From contig CAVYRH010000004.1 of the NCBI GenBank assembly GCA_963770835.1, forward strand, positions 192,001-256,000: 64,000 nucleotides of DNA, read 5' to 3'. A program made the position numbers and the translations under genes. A model generated the notes under the pieces. That model was given only the letters and a program-made list of their open reading frames with translations. It was not told the DNA's origin and did no database searches. This document shows, piece after piece, positions 47,434 through 55,511 of the stretch (position 1 is the first letter of the stretch; each line of letters begins with the position of its first letter). Origin of the DNA: an uncultured Pseudomonadota bacterium. Its GTDB lineage: Bacteria > Oederibacteriota > Muellerivitia > Muellerivitales > Muellerivitaceae.

Positions 47434-49048
47434 ATGCCCGACCTGATTGAGACCCCAAGACAGGCTTTTCTTTCCGCCGAGCCTAAAGTGACCCTGGTCA
47501 ACAGCTTCGCCCGGCCCTTCGACAACGCCGTGGCCACGGCCCGTACCTGTTATTCCAGCAAGGGTATCATCACCGCCGAGCAGGTGGCGGGGGAAGGGCT
47601 GGACGAGGAGAAGCGCGAGGAACGCCGCCAAAAACGCGACGATCTGGCCCGGTCCATCTACAAGGCGGGCCACCACACCACCCTGCAGCACGCCCATTTC
47701 CAGTTCGCCCTGGAGAACGTCTCCCGGCAGTTCATCTGGAGTTTCCTGCACAGCCATCCCTTCTACAACTCCGAGCAGGTGTCCCAGCGCTACGTGACGG
47801 TCGACCCCACTCAGATTGGCCATGCCCCCCTTGTCGCGGGAGGCGGCCAAGGTCTACCAGTGCAGCCGTTGCCTTCCAGACCCAAGCCTATCAGGACCTC
47901 ACCGAAAACCTGAAGCCGCTGGTGGAGCGGGAATACCTGGCGCGGTTCAAGCACGCGGACCCCAAGGGCAAGAAGGTCGCTCGCTGGCGGTCCAGAAGAA
48001 ATCCCAGGAAGTGGCCCGGTACGTCTTGCCCGTGGCCACCTTCGCCTATCTTTACCACACGGTCTCCGGCCTGACCCTTTTGCGCTATTGGAGGCTTTGC
48101 CAGACCTTCGACGCGCCCCTGGAACAGCGGTTGGTCATCGGGAAGATGGTCGAGGAGGTTTTGAAGGAAGCGCCCGACTACAGGGCCATCCTGGAACAAC
48201 CGCTGGACTTTCGAATCCACTCCCGAAGCCCAGATGTACGAGAACCTTCCACGCCACCGCCGCCACCCATAAGGCTTTCCGGGAGGAGTTCGACGCCTCC
48301 CTGGAAGGGCGCACTTCCAAGCTGGTGGACTATTCCAAGGAAGGGGAGAAGATGCTGGCCTCCGCCGTGCGGGAAGTTTTCGGCCTGCCCTCCTCCGCCC
48401 TCTCGGATGACGAGGCCATCGCCCTGGCCCTGGACCCCGCCAAGAACAAGTACCTGGGCGAAACCCTGAACGTCACCACCCACAGCAAGCTTTCGCGGGC
48501 GCTCTTCCATCCCCATTACACCTTCCGCAAGAAGATCTCCCACACAGGGGATTCACAGGACCAGCGGCACCGCATGACGCCCGCTTCCCGGCCCATCCTG
48601 CACGCCCTGACCCTGGACGAGCCCGATTACCTTGTTCCGGTGCTGTTGAAGCAGGACACCGGCCCTGGAGAAGGAATACGGCGAGATCATGAACCGGACC
48701 TGGGAAGCCATCGGCCAACTGCGGAAGATGGGTGTTTCCGACGAGTTCGCGGCCTATCTGCTGCCCAACGCAGTGTCGGTGCGCTTCACCGAATCGGCGG
48801 ACCTCTTGAACCTGCACCACAAGCACGCCATGAGGCTTTGCTACAACGCCCAGGAAGAAATCTGGAAGGCCTCGGTGGACGAGGCCCAGCAGGTGCGGGA
48901 AGTCCACCCCCGCATCGGAAAGTGGCTCTTGCCGCCCTGTGGCCTAAGGGCCTTCGCGGGGACGCTCCCCAAGTGCCCCGAGGGCGACCGCTTCTGCGGC
49001 GTGGTGGTCTGGAAGAAGGATTTGAAGGAGTATCAGAGGGTCATTTAA
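47434..49048 (+). CDS. thyX: Tandem-domain FAD-dependent thymidylate synthase (ThyX-like), broken by about 6 frameshifts
   Basis: ARTCYS, GHHTTLQH..F...VSR, EQVSQRY, EVARYVLP; second domain QRHR, YLLPNA, RLCYNAQEEI; coding signal hops frames near 47817, 47862, 47985, 48212, 48242, 48661. Confidence 0.8.
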
Positions 49049-49680: not shown

Positions 49681-49737
49681 AAATAGTCTTTGGAATTCGG
49701 TATTGATTTGTTTTGATCCGTGGCTACAATCCTGGCC

Positions 49738-50466
49738 ATGAAACCTTCCCGGTTGGCCCTTTTCGATATCGACGGCACCATCCTCACCACCGTGCGCAAG
49801 GCCTGGGAGAATCCCTTCAAAGATGCCATGGAGCAAGCCTTCGCTGACGAGGGTGATCCCCACCCGATTGATACAAGCAAATACCGCCCTGGCGGAAAAA
49901 CCGATACCCAGATCATCTATGAGATCCTCGGCCAAAACGGGATTGAGGAAACGCGGATCGGACGGCTACTTCTCAAAATCAAGGCCAAGTACCTGGCGCT
50001 CCTCAAGGAAGTGATCGGGGAGAGTCCCGATTACGTGACCCTAAAGCCCGGAATCCAAGAGCTCTTAGCCGAGTTACATACCCATCCGGATGTTCTTTTG
50101 GGCCTTCTAACCGGTAATTTCGAGGAGGGGGCCCGTATCAAGCTGGGGGCTCACGGATTGAATCAATACTTCAGCTTTGGCGCTTTCGGGGATGCCGCTC
50201 GGCAAAGGTCCGAGCTTCCTCAGAGGGCCGTGGATGCCGCCAAGCATCACAAGGGCCATCATTTCTCGGCGAAGGAAATTGTAATTATTGGGGATACTCC
50301 CAATGACATCCATTGCGGGCGGCACTTGCAGGTGCGCACGATCGCCGTTGCCACTGGGCCGTTTACCCTGGAGCAATTGGAAGCCGAGAAGCCGGATTTC
50401 GTTTTTGTTAATTTTTTGGACAAGGAAAAAGTCATTTCCGCCATCCTGGATCATCTGCCGCATTGA
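49738..50466 (+). CDS. HAD-superfamily hydrolase
   Basis: LFDIDGTI, LLTGN, IGDTPND. Confidence 0.9.
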   Translation: MKPSRLALFDIDGTILTTVRKAWENPFKDAMEQAFADEGDPHPIDTSKYRPGGKTDTQIIYEILGQNGIEETRIGRLLLKIKAKYLALLKEVIGESPDYVTLKPGIQELLAELHTHPDVLLGLLTGNFEEGARIKLGAHGLNQYFSFGAFGDAARQRSELPQRAVDAAKHHKGHHFSAKEIVIIGDTPNDIHCGRHLQVRTIAVATGPFTLEQLEAEKPDFVFVNFLDKEKVISAILDHLPH

Positions 50467-50590
50467 CATTAATATTTCGCTGGATAAACCGCTTTCCCTA
50501 GCCAGGTTCCCGTTTCTTTGTAACCTTTCCCAACCGTCCTTGTATTTATCAAGCACACCGCTTGTTCAGAATACGGGGAGGTTTTTCACC

Positions 50591-51280
50591 ATGAAGAAGG
50601 CCTATTATTTCGCCGCTTTAATCCTGATTGCCGCCGGTTCGATGGTTTTGACCGGTTGTCCCAACAATAGTTACAGCCCCAGTTCCCCCATGTACCCGAC
50701 CAACACGCCGGTCCCATCCGGCCCCACGGGAACCCCCACTGGAACTCCGACAAAAACCGCCACTGGGACCGTCACGGGAACCCCTACGAATAGTTCCACT
50801 CCCACTTTGACGGGAACCCCCACACAAACGGCTACCGTAACCCCCACGGCGACCATTACCGACACACCTACAGTGACCAACACCGCGACCATCACCAATA
50901 CCCCGACTGCCACCCCCACCGCCGCACCCGTTACCATCACGGTTTCAGAAGCTTCCTCAGGCTTGGACGTCACGGGGTACATTTATACGTCGTCCAGCGG
51001 AACCAACGGCACAGGAGGCCTTCTCACGCTCACGGCCAATGTGGGCGATACCATTACGTTTGATTCACTAGCCGCCACAGGGTTTCATCCGCTTTATTTC
51101 GACAACGGATCAACCACTTGCATTTTTACCGGCGCCACTTCCAGCCAGTCCTATGTCTTTCCGGCGGCGGGAACCTATTATTTCCACTGCGGCAACCACG
51201 CCACCAGCTGCAGCCGGGGCAATGGGGCCTGCGGCTCCACCAATTGCAACGGCATGGCGGGCGTGGTGACAGTCAACTAA
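50591..51280 (+). CDS. Lipoprotein: Thr/Pro stalk plus cupredoxin (type-1 Cu)-like domain
   Basis: Lipobox VLTGC; VGDTITF, HPLYF, F.AAGTYYFHCGNH...MAGVVTV. Confidence 0.8.
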   Translation: MKKAYYFAALILIAAGSMVLTGCPNNSYSPSSPMYPTNTPVPSGPTGTPTGTPTKTATGTVTGTPTNSSTPTLTGTPTQTATVTPTATITDTPTVTNTATITNTPTATPTAAPVTITVSEASSGLDVTGYIYTSSSGTNGTGGLLTLTANVGDTITFDSLAATGFHPLYFDNGSTTCIFTGATSSQSYVFPAAGTYYFHCGNHATSCSRGNGACGSTNCNGMAGVVTVN

Positions 51281-51300
51281 CCCTCTCCTACTGGTTTTTG

Positions 51301-51334
51301 GGGTCCCCGGCCGTCCACCGGGGGCCTTTTATTT
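51301..51334 (+). terminator. Terminator-like hairpin
   Basis: GGGTCCCCGG-ccgtcca-CCGGGGCCT then TTTATTT. Confidence 0.55.
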
Positions 51335-51356
51335 AGTTTTTTGATTTGGGGGTCGC

Positions 51357-52985
51357 ATGAGAAAAAATTTTTTATTCATCATTTGGATGCTTGTGGTTAT
51401 TTCAGGCGGCTTAACGGGTTGTCCCACGCGAAGCATCAACATCCCCACCCAGCCGATAGTCATGACGAACAGCCCTACACCTAATATTCCAACGGGTACT
51501 CCCAGCCTGACGTTCACGGCCACGGTGCCGGGGACTTCCACCTTTACCCGGACGAATACCCCCACCGCTTCGTCGACTTCCGCAAGCACCGGAACGTCGA
51601 CGGCAACCCTCACGCCGACTTTTTCGCCCACGGCCAGTCCCCCCACCACCCCGACAGCTACGATTCCGCCCGCCAATACTTTCACCAATACCCCAACGTC
51701 GAGCCCCACCGATACCCCGTCAGCTGTTTTTACTCCCACCTCCACACCGACTTCAACCATGACGGCTACGGAAACAAATACTTTCACTGTCACAAATACA
51801 CCCACTTCCACGGCTACCCTGACATCGACCAATACCCCGACGACCACCAATAGCTTTACCGCTTCGGCCACTTCCACCAATTCCGCCACCAGCACCGCCA
51901 CCGCGACCGTCACCGACACCTCCACCGTTACGAATACTCCGACCGATACCCCTACCGCAACGCAAACGGCCACGGGTACGAATACCTTTACCGTAACCGA
52001 CACACCCACTTCCACGGCGACCCCAACCCCGACCAATACCTTCACCGTCACCAATACCCCGACGGCCACCAATAGCTTTACCGCTTCGGCCACTTCCACC
52101 AATTCCGCCACCCGCACAGCCACTGCGACCGTTACCGGCACCCCGACAGGGACTTCCACCGCAACGACCACGGCCACGGGCACTTCCACCTTTACCGCAA
52201 CGGATACTCCCACTTCCACGGCTAGCTCGACGCCGACCAACACCTCTACCGTCACCAATACACCGACGGCCACCGGGACCTTTACGGCCTCGGCCACTTC
52301 AACCGACTCCGCCACCCGCACGGCCACTGCGACCGTTACCGGCACCCCGACAGGGACTTCCACCGCAACGACCACGGCCACGGGCACTTCCACCTTTACC
52401 GCAACGGATACTCCCACTTCCACGGCTAGCTCGACGCCGACCAAGACCTCTACCGTCACCAATACACCGACGGCCACCGGGACCTTTACGGCCTCGGCCA
52501 CTTCAACCGACTCCGCCACTGCTACTCCTACCCGAACCACCACGAATACGCCGACCCTTACCCGCACTTCCACATCCACCTTGACCCCCACCTCCACAGC
52601 GACCTCCACGGCCACGGCTACGGTGACTTCCACGCCCACCGCCCCCTCATGGGCCAATACGATATACCCGCTGTTTTCAAGCTCCACCTGCTTCACCTGC
52701 CACGCCAACGGCGCGGCTTCCGGCGGAATGAACCTGGGCAGCCCGCCATCCGCGGCCACTGTTTACGCCCTCTGGGTCGGCACGGGTTCGGGGGGCACGG
52801 CCAGCACAACCAACAACTGCGGGATCACCGATTACGTTTCGCCCGGCAATCCAAGCGCCAGCTTGGTCCTCCAAAAGTTGAACGGTTCCTGCGCGCCTCA
52901 AATGCCGGAGACGGGGGCGCTTTTCACGGCGGCCCAAATCGCCGAGTTCACCGCTTGGATCAACGCGGGAGCGCCCAACAACTGA
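51357..52985 (+). CDS. Lipoprotein: about 400-aa Thr-rich stalk plus monoheme c-type cytochrome (planctomycete cytochrome C-like)
   Basis: Lipobox LTGC; IYPLF...CFTCH...GGMNL...V.PGNP..S.V..K.....MP...I..WI.AGA. Confidence 0.82.
52105..52518 (+). repeat. Near-perfect 204-bp tandem duplication in the stalk coding region
   Basis: CCGCCACCCGCAC... unit at 52105 recurs at 52309; more diverged 222-bp-spaced copies at 51849 and 52071. Confidence 0.85.
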
Positions 52986-53124
52986 CTGTTCCCGTTTCTA
53001 CCTGATGGATGGAACTCATTGAATTCAGTCTTTTTACGGCACCCGCGCCGTTTTCCCGGGAACTTCTCTTAATAGGCTTGTATTTGCCTTCCCCTCTTTT
53101 GTATAAAGCCAAAGAGGGAACTTC

Positions 53125-53715
53125 ATGAAGAAAGCCGCTTATTCCACCGTTTTTATCCTGCTTGTCGCCGGTTCCACGGTAATAACCGGCTGTCCCAGCA
53201 AAACCTCAGTGAGTCCCACGTCCCCCGGCGCCCCGACCAATACTTTCACCCCCACTGCGACCCCCACGCCCACCGGCCCCACTTCCACACCGACCACCAC
53301 GGCCACCAACACCCCTACCGCTACCATTACCAATACGCCAACTCTTACCCCGACCGCGGTGCCGGTTACCATCACGGTCAACACCCAATCCAGCGGTGAT
53401 AATCCCCAGGGGTACATTTACGTTTCTTCCGTTGGCACCAACAACACTGGGGCGGGCGGCTTGTTGAGCCTAAGCGCCCACATCGGGGACAGCATCATTT
53501 TGCCCGCCAATGGCACCCATCCCCTTTGGTTCGATAACGGAACGTCTACCTGCGTGGTGACGGGTGGGGATACCAGTGGCCCGGTCACTTATACGTTTCC
53601 TTCAACCGGAACCTATAATTTCCACTGCGGCAACCACGGGGGATGCACTCCCAGCGATGGAGCCTGCGGGCTGTCCACCTGTTCGGCCATGGTAGGTGTT
53701 GTCACCGTCAACTAA
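53125..53715 (+). CDS. Lipoprotein: Thr/Pro stalk plus cupredoxin-like domain (paralog of 50591-51280)
   Basis: Lipobox ITGC; IGDSI, HPLWF, FPSTGTYNFHCGNH...MVGVVTV. Confidence 0.8.
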   Translation: MKKAAYSTVFILLVAGSTVITGCPSKTSVSPTSPGAPTNTFTPTATPTPTGPTSTPTTTATNTPTATITNTPTLTPTAVPVTITVNTQSSGDNPQGYIYVSSVGTNNTGAGGLLSLSAHIGDSIILPANGTHPLWFDNGTSTCVVTGGDTSGPVTYTFPSTGTYNFHCGNHGGCTPSDGACGLSTCSAMVGVVTVN

Positions 53716-53735: not shown

Positions 53736-53769
53736 GGGGCCCCGGGACTTTCCGGGGCCTTTTTTGTTT
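53736..53769 (+). terminator. Intrinsic terminator
   Basis: GGGGCCCCGGGA-ctt-TCCGGGGCCTT plus T-run. Confidence 0.7.
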
Positions 53770-53859: not shown

Positions 53860-54687
53860 ATGAAAATCCACCTGGCCCACAGCCCCGACGCCGACGATGC
53901 CTTCATGTTTTATGGCCTGGCCAAAAACAAGATCGACACCGAAGGCATCGAGTACGAGCACGTCCTGAAGGATATCCAGACCTTGAACGAATGGGCCCGG
54001 GAAGGCCGTATGGAAGTAACCGCCATCTCGGCCCACGCTTACGCTTACGTGAAGGACAAATACGCCATCCTGACCCACGGGGGAAGCATCGGGAAGAATT
54101 ACGGGCCGATGATCGTGGCCAAAGAGGACCAACCCATCGAAAGCTTCCGGGGCAAGAAGATCGCCATCCCTGGAAAGCTCACCAGCGCTTACCTGGCCTT
54201 TAAGCTTTGCCTGCCGGACTTCCAGGAAGTCATCGTGAACTTCGACCAGATCATGGACGAGGTGGCGAAGGGGACGGTGGACGCGGGGCTCATCATCCAT
54301 GAAGGGCAGTTAACCTATAAGGAAAAGGGCCTGTACAAAATCATCGACATGGGGGAATGGTGGTTCCAAAAGACGGGAATGGTGCTTCCCATGGGGGTCA
54401 ACGCCATCCGCCGGGACCTGCCGGAGGACGTGAAGAAAAAGGTTTCCAAACAACTGAAGCAGTCCATCCAGTATTCCCTCGACCACCGGGACGCGGCCCT
54501 GGACTACGCCCTGGCCTTCGGGCGCGGCTTATCCCGCGACGTGGCGGACCGCTTCGTGGGAATGTGGGTCAACGACCGCACGGTGGACATGGGCGAGGAA
54601 GGGCAGAATGCCATCCGGGAATTCTTGAAACGGGGCGAAGAGAAGAAGCTCATTCCGGCGGTCGGTGAGATTGAATTCGTGAACTGA
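53860..54687 (+). CDS. mqnD: 1,4-dihydroxy-6-naphthoate synthase (futalosine menaquinone pathway)
   Basis: AHSPDADDAFMFY, DIQTLN, YGP, TSA.L, FDQIM, GLIIHEGQLTY, LPMG.N. Confidence 0.88.
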   Translation: MKIHLAHSPDADDAFMFYGLAKNKIDTEGIEYEHVLKDIQTLNEWAREGRMEVTAISAHAYAYVKDKYAILTHGGSIGKNYGPMIVAKEDQPIESFRGKKIAIPGKLTSAYLAFKLCLPDFQEVIVNFDQIMDEVAKGTVDAGLIIHEGQLTYKEKGLYKIIDMGEWWFQKTGMVLPMGVNAIRRDLPEDVKKKVSKQLKQSIQYSLDHRDAALDYALAFGRGLSRDVADRFVGMWVNDRTVDMGEEGQNAIREFLKRGEEKKLIPAVGEIEFVN

Positions 54688-54737: not shown

Positions 54738-55511
54738 GTGAACCGTTCGGAATATATAGCTAAAGCGATTGTTGAAAAAATCACTCCTGGTTGTCGGATG
54801 GTTTTTAAGGAAACTCAATCAAACGGTGAATTCGATTTCGATCTTCATTGTAACGAGCAAATCGACTCGGTTGAAGTAACAACTTCCACTGATCAAAGGT
54901 TACGGGAAACCCTTGCCGCGATTGAAGTGGAAGGACAATTTGTTCCGCTAAAAAGATGTCAAAAGGATTGGATCATCCATCCATTGGCATCCGCAAACAT
55001 TAAAAAAATCGTGAAAGAAGTCGATGCTTACCTCGTTGCAATTGAAAATGCCGGACTAGTTTTTTTTAGTTCCATCGATAGGGCTACGTGTTCTTCGGTC
55101 GACCGCATTTATGAAGACCTTCGCATAGAGGGTGGGTCAATTACCCATTGGAAGCCACCAGGACCGCGAGTTTGTATCAGTAGACCAGGCGGCGGAGGCG
55201 AGTTAAAAGTCGACGATTTTTATCGGGTGATAAAATTAGAGACCGATAAAGAAGACAACCGTAAGAAACTTGGGAAAGCCAAAGGAAAGAAACACCTTTT
55301 TATATATGTCGACCCACGAAATTATAAACCTTGGGTAGAGTTAGTAGATCTAGAACCTTCAAGTCAATGTCCAGACCTACCTGACGAAATAGATGTGGTA
55401 TGGGCTACTTCAGAAGGTCGTTCCAAGGATGAATTTGTCGTTTGGAAGGGCGAGAGGAATGGGGTTTGGAAAAAGTTTCCAGAGATGAATATTCCGAACA
55501 AGCGGGAATAA
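54738..55511 (+). CDS. AT-rich hypothetical protein, possibly horizontally acquired
   Basis: 257-aa open frame with codon usage visibly different from neighbours; D-x9-11-EVT segment reminiscent of PD-(D/E)xK folds. Confidence 0.6.
   Translation: MNRSEYIAKAIVEKITPGCRMVFKETQSNGEFDFDLHCNEQIDSVEVTTSTDQRLRETLAAIEVEGQFVPLKRCQKDWIIHPLASANIKKIVKEVDAYLVAIENAGLVFFSSIDRATCSSVDRIYEDLRIEGGSITHWKPPGPRVCISRPGGGGELKVDDFYRVIKLETDKEDNRKKLGKAKGKKHLFIYVDPRNYKPWVELVDLEPSSQCPDLPDEIDVVWATSEGRSKDEFVVWKGERNGVWKKFPEMNIPNKRE

Follow-up and report, generated by a model that had tools for sequence, protein, structure and literature searches.

The window analysed here, a 64-kb stretch (64,000 nucleotides) of contig CAVYRH010000004.1 from an uncultured soil bacterium, carries a cluster of three genes for exported redox proteins (positions 50,591 to 53,715), each protein consisting of a lipobox signal peptide, a threonine-rich stalk and a single head of 115-117 residues. 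Two of the heads are predicted type 1 copper domains, called Cup heads below, and the third is a predicted monohaem cytochrome c. We propose, with a probability of about 0.5, that these heads are tethered, interchangeable one-electron shuttles for a predicted haem-bearing outer-membrane barrel encoded elsewhere in the same genome, and that they would be induced together with repair and copper-handling genes by a sigma factor of the SigF/NrsF type. More tentatively, the monohaem barrel and a lipid-anchored, FoxE-like cytochrome may form an undescribed trans-outer-membrane module found in several lineages; in FCPU426 it would stand under SigF-type stress control and bear surface swinging arms of up to about 100 nm, carrying haem or a new long-loop, disulfide-stapled type 1 Cu site, and would thus defend the cell against oxidants or toxic metals by extracellular electron transfer. 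The parts are of known kinds; what appears to be new is the cupredoxin subfamily with its long loop, the pairing of barrel and cytochrome, and the setting of these in a regulon of SigF type. The genome bearing the window is G000 (the own genome), G002 and the like are genomes of relatives, and L numbers are loci. Lipobox and signal-peptide calls were made by regular expression and by eye, and published work is cited from excerpts of the papers. The features of the region are:

49720..50466, + strand: HAD hydrolase, the left flank of the insertion slot, outside the system
50520..50547, + strand: ECF-type (extracytoplasmic function) promoter-like site GTAAC-N17-GTAT, 71 nt 5' of the first start codon
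50591..51280, + strand: cupredoxin lipoprotein A, 229 aa; signal to Cys23, 89-aa Thr/Pro stalk (50660-50926), head (50927-51277) with predicted Cu ligands H166, C200, H203 and M222 and extra Cys 177, 207, 214 and 219
51300..51328, + strand: terminator-like hairpin 3' of gene A, weak
51357..52985, + strand: cytochrome c lipoprotein, 542 aa; signal to Cys22, 405-aa Thr stalk (51423-52637), FoxE-like monohaem head (52638-52982) with C445xxC448H449, predicted axial M516 and extra Cys 488 and 512
51954..52519, + strand: 204-bp tandem repeat within the long stalk, 2.8 copies, 91% matches
53059..53085, + strand: variant site GGAAC-N17-TATTT 5' of gene B, doubtful, with a position weight matrix (PWM) score of only 2.0 bits
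53125..53715, + strand: cupredoxin lipoprotein B, 196 aa; signal to Cys23, 56-aa stalk (53194-53361), head (53362-53712) with predicted Cu ligands H132, C168, H171 and M189 and extra Cys 143, 174, 181 and 186
53736..53761, + strand: terminator-like hairpin 3' of gene B, ahead of the PF02621 gene, weak
53860..54687, + strand: PF02621 menaquinone biosynthesis gene, MqnD-like, the right flank, outside the system

The signal peptides end in LTGC-P in cupredoxin A and the cytochrome and in ITGC-P in cupredoxin B, and the heads of A and B are identical at 62 of 114 positions. A preliminary description of this DNA, made from the letters, had read three co-oriented lipobox genes with stalks of about 85, 400 and 50 residues, and both statements hold at the coordinates and lengths listed above; its two cupredoxin heads and one CxxCH...MP cytochrome head correspond to two plastocyanin-fold heads and one FoxE-like monohaem head. 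Three additions to it are the haem barrel, the SigF-like promoter and the long ligand loop of disulfide type. Contigs of four soil metagenome runs, one of them possibly the source sample, cover the region piecewise over most of the stretch.

Neither copper head of the window matches a Pfam or NCBIfam family. In the PDB, the hits of a profile of 21 homologues, at best with E 2e-5, were amicyanin, plastocyanin and NiR cupredoxin domains, and most of these matches end at the second His. Four of the 21 homologues matched Cupredoxin_1 of Pfam. The AlphaFold model of head B (predicted local distance difference test, pLDDT, 81) best matches plastocyanin (VIA Z 7.9, root-mean-square deviation 2.7, 87 aligned; Foldseek E 2e-4), which agrees with the cupredoxin call made earlier; head A is placed by the profile and by its identity to B. 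Plastocyanin and amicyanin are the best among the listed sequence and structure matches, and azurin is absent from them. An Atlas search with head B gave leads under 0.9 only, all Copper-bind, and a contig search with the same head returned one locus. The predicted ligands H52, C88 and H91 are invariant in 21 of 21 aligned Cup heads. Sixty-two Cup heads were found, 56 of which were parsed and six were not, with three Leu calls re-read as Met; the axial residue is Met in 51 and Leu in five of the parsed heads. The segment from the second His to the axial residue spans 12-23 residues and holds three Cys in 55 of the 56, a fourth extra Cys follows the first His in 53 of the 56, and the Cys-to-Met span of the window heads is 20-21 residues. 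The short His-to-Met loop of the plastocyanin, amicyanin and azurin subfamilies does not occur in the Cup heads, and the amicyanin, plastocyanin and halocyanin models score far under cut-off on Cup homologues. Among the 150 best representatives the long loop recurs in 57; most of the others are cupredoxins of the ordinary kind, in which this segment has 2-7 residues and lacks Cys. The copper heads are thus predicted to form an unnamed cupredoxin subfamily with His-Cys-His-Met/Leu ligands, a long Cys-rich loop and four extra Cys, and we infer that the latter pair in two disulfides.

Among described proteins, AcoP is also a membrane-tethered cupredoxin, with a C-X6-H-X4-M loop termed unusually long (PMC4059628), and phytocyanins likewise combine a type 1 Cu domain that carries disulfides with a lipid-anchored, glycoprotein-like stalk (PMC11077699); the Cup heads differ from both in the length of their Cys-to-Met span and in the three Cys of their His-to-Met segment. 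Their ligand loop, H-x17/18-M, also contrasts with C138-H143-M148 of rusticyanin (PMC13741234). The Cup heads are natural type 1 sites with a 12-23-residue His-to-Met loop and Met/Leu variation, and, since loop length is held to govern site geometry (PMC4059628), their small size makes that idea directly testable. In one strain contig, the part of head B at window positions 53395-53616 shows eight differences, six of them at codon position 1 or 2, with the ligand codons spared. The sole Cup head found outside the order (L124, G055:C162) has in its vicinity a CxxCH-bearing DUF3570 protein, a thioredoxin-like gene and an integrase. In G020 the Cup gene in the slot between the HAD hydrolase and mqnD (L048:6960-7724) is split across two frames.

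All 10 cytochrome heads in the alignment carry CxxCH and MP. The closest solved relative, in sequence (E 7e-8) as in fold (Z 6.7), is FoxE of Rhodopseudomonas ferrooxidans SW2 (PDB 5mab), which shares the pattern CxxCH...MP...W-I-x-x-G-A; a Foldseek search with the cytochrome model found nothing at E 0.001, NCBIfam assigns the head no family, and the Pfam scores stay under cut-off (PF07635 PSCyt1, 17.0 bits vs 22; PF13442, 16.7 vs 27). FoxE has two haem domains, whereas the head described here has one CxxCH and ends a stalked lipoprotein. It is predicted to be a His/Met monohaem cytochrome, FoxE-like, with a class I helical fold. Because ResB and CcsA lie adjacent in the genome (G000:C4:509713-512899), the cytochrome c maturation on which the preliminary description had made its reading depend is present, as system II. 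The own genome also encodes candidate electron sinks, namely an aa3-type oxidase (COX1/COX2) and a CCP/MauG-family peroxidase.

Comparison of relatives suggests that a single type of promoter and signal peptide serves copper and haem heads interchangeably. In both G002 and G003 the HAD hydrolase is followed by a gene that carries the promoter and N-terminus of gene A (25 of 36 identical) and ends in a cytochrome head, identical to the window cytochrome at 59-60 of 114-115 positions; no Cup head was found in either genome. The same slot in G046 holds a Cup gene and an 827-aa stalked cytochrome. Across 27 barrel genomes, 15 have Cup heads only, two the cytochrome only and 10 both. Plastocyanin and cytochrome c6 substitute for each other, and by that analogy the Cu and haem heads would replace each other. 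The three genes had been expected to co-occur in relatives: cytochrome and cupredoxin genes lie within 6 kb in six of the 12 cytochrome-bearing genomes, with the order Cup-cytochrome-Cup in G041 and G044.

The proposed partner is a gene, recurrent in the neighbourhoods of the head genes, for a predicted barrel of about 365 aa that starts with EPY-x-A-x4-CxxCH and ends in an aromatic residue (own copy at G000:C19:45074-46234, unlinked to the window genes). The haem motif (C12, C15, H16) is invariant in 26 of 26 barrels, and a conserved His lies near position 66. Like Cyc2, the protein has one CxxCH just past the signal peptide and then a predicted porin-like barrel. No Pfam or NCBIfam family matched it, a PDB sequence search returned no useful match, and its hydrophobicity alternation is weak; its Atlas neighbours at 0.98-0.99 are named cytochrome c or porin, and two distant homologues match PF13609. 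We compared it with a protein of the own genome that we take, from its motif, to be Cyc2-like. Because this alignment (hhalign) is limited to 17 columns at the haem motif (probability 26%), the barrel is treated as Cyc2-like in architecture and is not filed as Cyc2.

The 30 same-family relatives contain Cup heads in 25, the cytochrome head in 11, either head in 27, the barrel in 25 and NrsF in 26; G009, G019 and G024 (85, 97 and 93% complete) have no match for any of the Cup, cytochrome, barrel or NrsF families. Beyond the family, Cup heads occur in one of one sister-family genome and one of 29 genomes further out, and the barrel in none of 29 genomes of other orders. With fragmented assemblies counted as misses, the cytochrome gene is no more than 6 kb from the barrel in 11 of the 12 genomes that have it, the own genome being the exception, and a head of either kind is that close in 18 of the 27 barrel genomes. 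A test at greater distance used 20 aligned distant barrel homologues and the best 80 of 506 metagenome loci, which were fetched; about 2800 stored metagenome stretches are estimated to match the barrel patterns. Of the fetched loci, 51 extend 1.1 kb or more upstream of the barrel, and in 48 of these the barrel is directly preceded by a co-oriented gene homologous to the window cytochrome head. These upstream cytochromes have a lipobox-like motif in 36 of 46 checked and often an Ig-like domain, and no distant barrel homologue was found in plasmids. The barrel and the cytochrome thus appear to be a second, apparently unnamed pair beside Cyc2. A complex prediction of barrel, cytochrome head and two haems scored 0.01 with its controls unfolded, and is evidence neither way. 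As to neighbouring genes, a polysaccharide lyase 14 gene (PF21294; G000:C19:43691-45061, L040:3692-5062) follows the own barrel, and similar lyase genes, recognised by eye, follow it in eight relatives (L053, L056, L127, L133-L136, L140). In the distant loci L256-L258, L292, L309, L319 and L323, a divergent gene with Ig and sometimes CHRD domains, ending in the same cytochrome domain, lies next to the barrel-cytochrome pair.

At many barrel loci there is an ECF sigma gene together with an NrsF anti-sigma gene; in 11 of the 17 genomes that have a close NrsF, this gene and the barrel are no more than 6 kb apart. The NrsF family (PF06532) is matched by the G041 copy at 68.8 bits (cut-off 26.8), and the own copy is 67% identical to it and keeps both Cys motifs; the NrsF-paired sigma of the own genome lies at G000:C26:658824-659387, and a second sigma on C19. 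As in ECF16, the sigma gene precedes a two-Cys NrsF, the -35 box is GTAAC and the site is autoregulatory: GTAAC-N17/18-[CG]TAT stands 50-110 nt upstream of 11 of 11 NrsF-paired ECF sigma genes (10 of 10 in relatives, and the own). The ECF16 consensus is (T/C)GTAAC-N17-CGAA, and Msr genes are common to ECF16 regulons (PMC8315932); ECF16/SigF regulons respond to HOCl, reactive oxygen species or heavy metals, and SigF controls the core regulon of copper stress in Caulobacter (PMC11626156). In relatives the site precedes 23 of 50 Cup genes, five of 15 cytochrome genes and three of 19 genes for the barrel; by comparison, the own genome has it before 50 of its 4462 genes. The head counts are in-sample, the motif being derived from these same upstream regions, in relatives that are not independent. 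Out of sample, msrA has the site in 14 of 30 cases and in none of four in genomes without NrsF, with 1.6% in random windows. In the own genome, gene A, a third Cup gene and the barrel carry the site, which occurs on only two of 35 stalked lipoproteins there. The copy at 50520 keeps both boxes in G002 and G003 with a differing spacer, and has the second-best PWM score in the genome. A PWM trained on relatives gave 11 own hits of at least 15 bits, including Gpx, gene A, the third Cup gene, an HMBD-SCO1 operon, AhpC/TSA, MsrA and the barrel; this list rests on its coherence, with false positives expected, because the PWM scores genome-wide are not above shuffles (7 vs 5.0 at 15 bits, longest-ORF starts; ORF, open reading frame). 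Scans for sigma-70 promoters and terminators stayed at chance level, with six terminator-like sites found against a shuffle mean of 8.2 and hence no enrichment. Two further loci deserve mention. G000:C7:70078-73356 (L149), with the same promoter motif, encodes a Cys-rich small protein, an unnamed exported protein (CACGCG start), HMBD, SCO1 and a Haem_bd cytochrome, and has a copper-handling look. The sigma/NrsF pair is accompanied in many relatives by two genes seen at G000:C26:656117-658124 (L128:4118-6125), one for a periplasmic binding protein of the sugar type and one for an unnamed exported protein of 256-275 aa.

In E. coli, the Lol rule sends a lipoprotein without Asp at +2 to the outer membrane. 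The window proteins have Pro at +2 and the genome has LolA, so an outer-membrane destination is probable. Outward display is favoured because the same Cup head caps proteins of 500-940 aa with tails like those of the type IX secretion system (T9SS) in nine relatives, with the barrel gene immediately downstream of this protein's gene in G004 and G020, and because an SprA-like gene, below cut-off, is present in the own genome; the tail model TIGR04183 is over cut-off in G045 and under it in G004 and G020. The mechanism that we propose starts from what the sequence contains, namely the lipobox, the stalk and the conserved ligands, and from the predicted type 1 Cu fold with a long two-disulfide loop and the predicted His/Met cytochrome matured by ResB/CcsA. 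The lipoproteins would reach the outer membrane and face outward, at about 60:40. Gene linkage suggests that the heads exchange electrons with the haem of the barrel, and the promoter suggests that oxidation of, or metal binding by, the NrsF Cys frees the sigma factor, so that heads, barrel and MsrA would be induced together. In the weakest step, for which we lean to inward flow, the heads, at the surface, would take electrons from reduced metals such as Cu(I) or Fe(II), and the barrel would hand them to the aa3-type oxidase or the CCP/MauG-family peroxidase, limiting Fenton-type damage. Monohaem barrels are usually read as markers of iron oxidation; a tie to a stress regulon in one lineage would make trans-outer-membrane electron transfer a defence as well as an energy route.

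Several observations weigh against this proposal, beside the in-sample head counts and the lack of genome-wide PWM enrichment given above. The whole case is genomic. In the own genome neither the barrel nor the sigma gene is linked to the window genes, and of 28 genomes only 11 have a Cup head no more than 6 kb from the barrel. Heads without a barrel match occur in G016 and G018, and G014 has barrel and head without an NrsF match. Among the distant loci inspected, neither a Cup head nor an ECF16-consensus site was found near the barrels. The -10 box is [CG]TAT or GTAA and not the CGAA of ECF16; the msrA sites look like the GTAA subtype and may belong to a second sigma/NrsF pair, and gpx, also out of sample, has the site in only four of 29. 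Within the window, the cytochrome gene has no site, that of gene B is doubtful, and a terminator-like hairpin follows gene A. Control of the cytochrome gene and gene B would therefore be by read-through, as sites before the first gene only in G041, G044 and G046 also suggest. Outward display is also questioned by Laz, once thought exposed, which is not surface exposed in N. gonorrhoeae (PMC6277709).

The stalks are a generic chassis of the own genome and nothing special to the cluster. Their composition in the three window proteins is 38-43% Thr and 10-21% Pro; a loose screen of the own genome returned 145 Thr-rich ORFs, and a stricter one 35 stalked lipoproteins and 63 stalked proteins with T9SS-like C-terminal domain (CTD) tails, 98 in total. 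Most heads of the stalked lipoproteins are of other kinds, as judged from tails read by eye. Stalk length under related heads ranges from almost none to several hundred residues, and the long stalk varies between contigs, with an in-frame 18-nt insertion in two runs and an in-frame 426-nt skip in one contig, where assembly collapse is possible. The preliminary description had proposed swinging-arm carriers of graded reach. The carriers themselves stand, as tethered one-electron carriers, on the folds, the ligands, ResB and CcsA, the linkage and a likely outer-membrane partner. Graded reach does not, because the stalk is genome-wide, repeat-bearing and free to vary in length among relatives and perhaps among strains, and is not a conserved design.

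This bears on the reading in which the cluster is a fixed graded-reach set tied to menaquinone synthesis through the adjacent, co-oriented gene. That gene matches PF02621 (E 1e-75), a family that covers MqnA as well as MqnD; we read it as MqnD from its N-terminal motif. Of 29 relatives, 10 have a head or barrel gene just before mqnD, in 15 the HAD gene abuts mqnD with no head between them, and four are uninformative, so mqnD is best regarded as a bystander. It is also kept in the three genomes in which no heads were found, the stalk lengths are unconserved, and a terminator-like hairpin separates gene B from mqnD. The graded-reach and mqnD-linked set is largely refuted by these slot counts and by mqnD retention without heads, and we give it almost no credence. 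The variable slot, the 98 stalked proteins with their many head types and the unlinked own barrel would also suit an origin of the cluster as a by-product of domain shuffling on the stalk chassis, its heads acting alone on soluble or surface substrates and its link to the barrel being historical. Yet barrel-cytochrome adjacency persists across lineages, and the unlinked barrel, the third Cup gene and gene A share a promoter type that is rare among the stalked lipoproteins, which makes this origin improbable.

Respiratory extracellular electron uptake for energy, with heads swinging across the periplasm as in a Cyc2-rusticyanin-Cyc1-aa3 chain and the stress promoter secondary, is unlikely but keeps some weight. 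The combination of a monohaem barrel, a cupredoxin and a cytochrome mirrors the Acidithiobacillus chain (PMC13741234), the closest solved head relative is the putative iron oxidase FoxE, an aa3-type oxidase is present, and the distant barrel-cytochrome pairs occur without an ECF16 site. The barrel, however, matches the Cyc2-like protein over its haem motif only, the own Cyc2-like gene sits in a separate cytochrome b/c operon, the module stands beside an NrsF-paired sigma in the 11 of 17 genomes already mentioned, and a 405-aa stalk would far exceed the width of the periplasm. We consider it rather less probable again that the Cup proteins serve as copper sinks or oxidise Cu(I), the Cys-rich loop giving extra thiolate sites, bufferin-like and under SigF, with barrel and cytochrome a separate pair that shares the regulon. 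The near-constant three loop Cys, up to seven Cup copies per genome, the motif 5' of the HMBD-SCO1 operon and the lack of Cup heads found near distant barrels favour a sink, and SigF drives Cu-chelating bufferins (PMC11626156). Four extra Cys at fixed positions on exported proteins nevertheless suit two disulfides, phytocyanins being disulfide-bearing too (PMC11077699), and a sink leaves the replacement of Cup by cytochrome on one chassis unexplained.

For single proteins, the earlier statement that no described system has this architecture was too strong; for the module itself, the literature searched lists no paper. Neisseria Laz has a low-complexity linker. It is a lipid-anchored single cupredoxin that is reported to protect against H2O2 and to donate to cytochrome c peroxidase (PMC6277709). 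In comparison with Laz, the window heads are nearest plastocyanin and amicyanin among the listed matches, which contain no azurin, have the long Cys-rich loop and a Thr stalk of up to hundreds of residues, swap with a cytochrome, and are tied to a haem barrel and a SigF-like promoter. The Cyc2-rusticyanin-Cyc1-aa3 chain of Acidithiobacillus ferrooxidans shares the monohaem outer-membrane barrel with its haem motif right past the signal peptide and a cupredoxin and a small cytochrome as likely partners (PMC13741234), whereas here the barrel homology is confined to the haem motif, the partners are lipid-anchored on stalks and the promoter is of a stress type. The ECF16 SigF/NrsF systems of Caulobacter, Brucella, Bradyrhizobium and Azospira share the two-Cys NrsF, the GTAAC -35 box, autoregulation, msrA as a likely target and copper genes (PMC3511200, PMC8315932, PMC11626156); they differ in the -10 box, and the excerpts of the same papers contain no cupredoxin, cytochrome and haem-barrel module in these regulons. 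The literature searched yielded nothing on the long-loop subfamily, the barrel-cytochrome pair or their SigF-like placement, and sequence supplements for Cyc2 and FeGenie could still hold the barrel family.

Some further observations concern other genes. Separate from the module, a Cyc2-like monohaem barrel lies at G000:C4:648734-654446 (L041) between a small cytochrome c and a cytochrome b-dihaem c fusion, with a divergent dihaem gene. Cytochrome bd subunit I (G000:C4:6987-8278) is in pieces, possibly through an assembly indel, and a quinol-type nitric oxide reductase (PF22085 + PF00115) is encoded at G000:C3:385424-387685 (L131). In the window, the gene at 47434-49048, which we take to be ThyX-like, is intact in relatives (about 535 aa) and split over several frames here, again possibly by an assembly indel. 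Past the PF02621 gene, a lower-GC stretch contains an ORF of 257 aa (54738-55511) with no family match.

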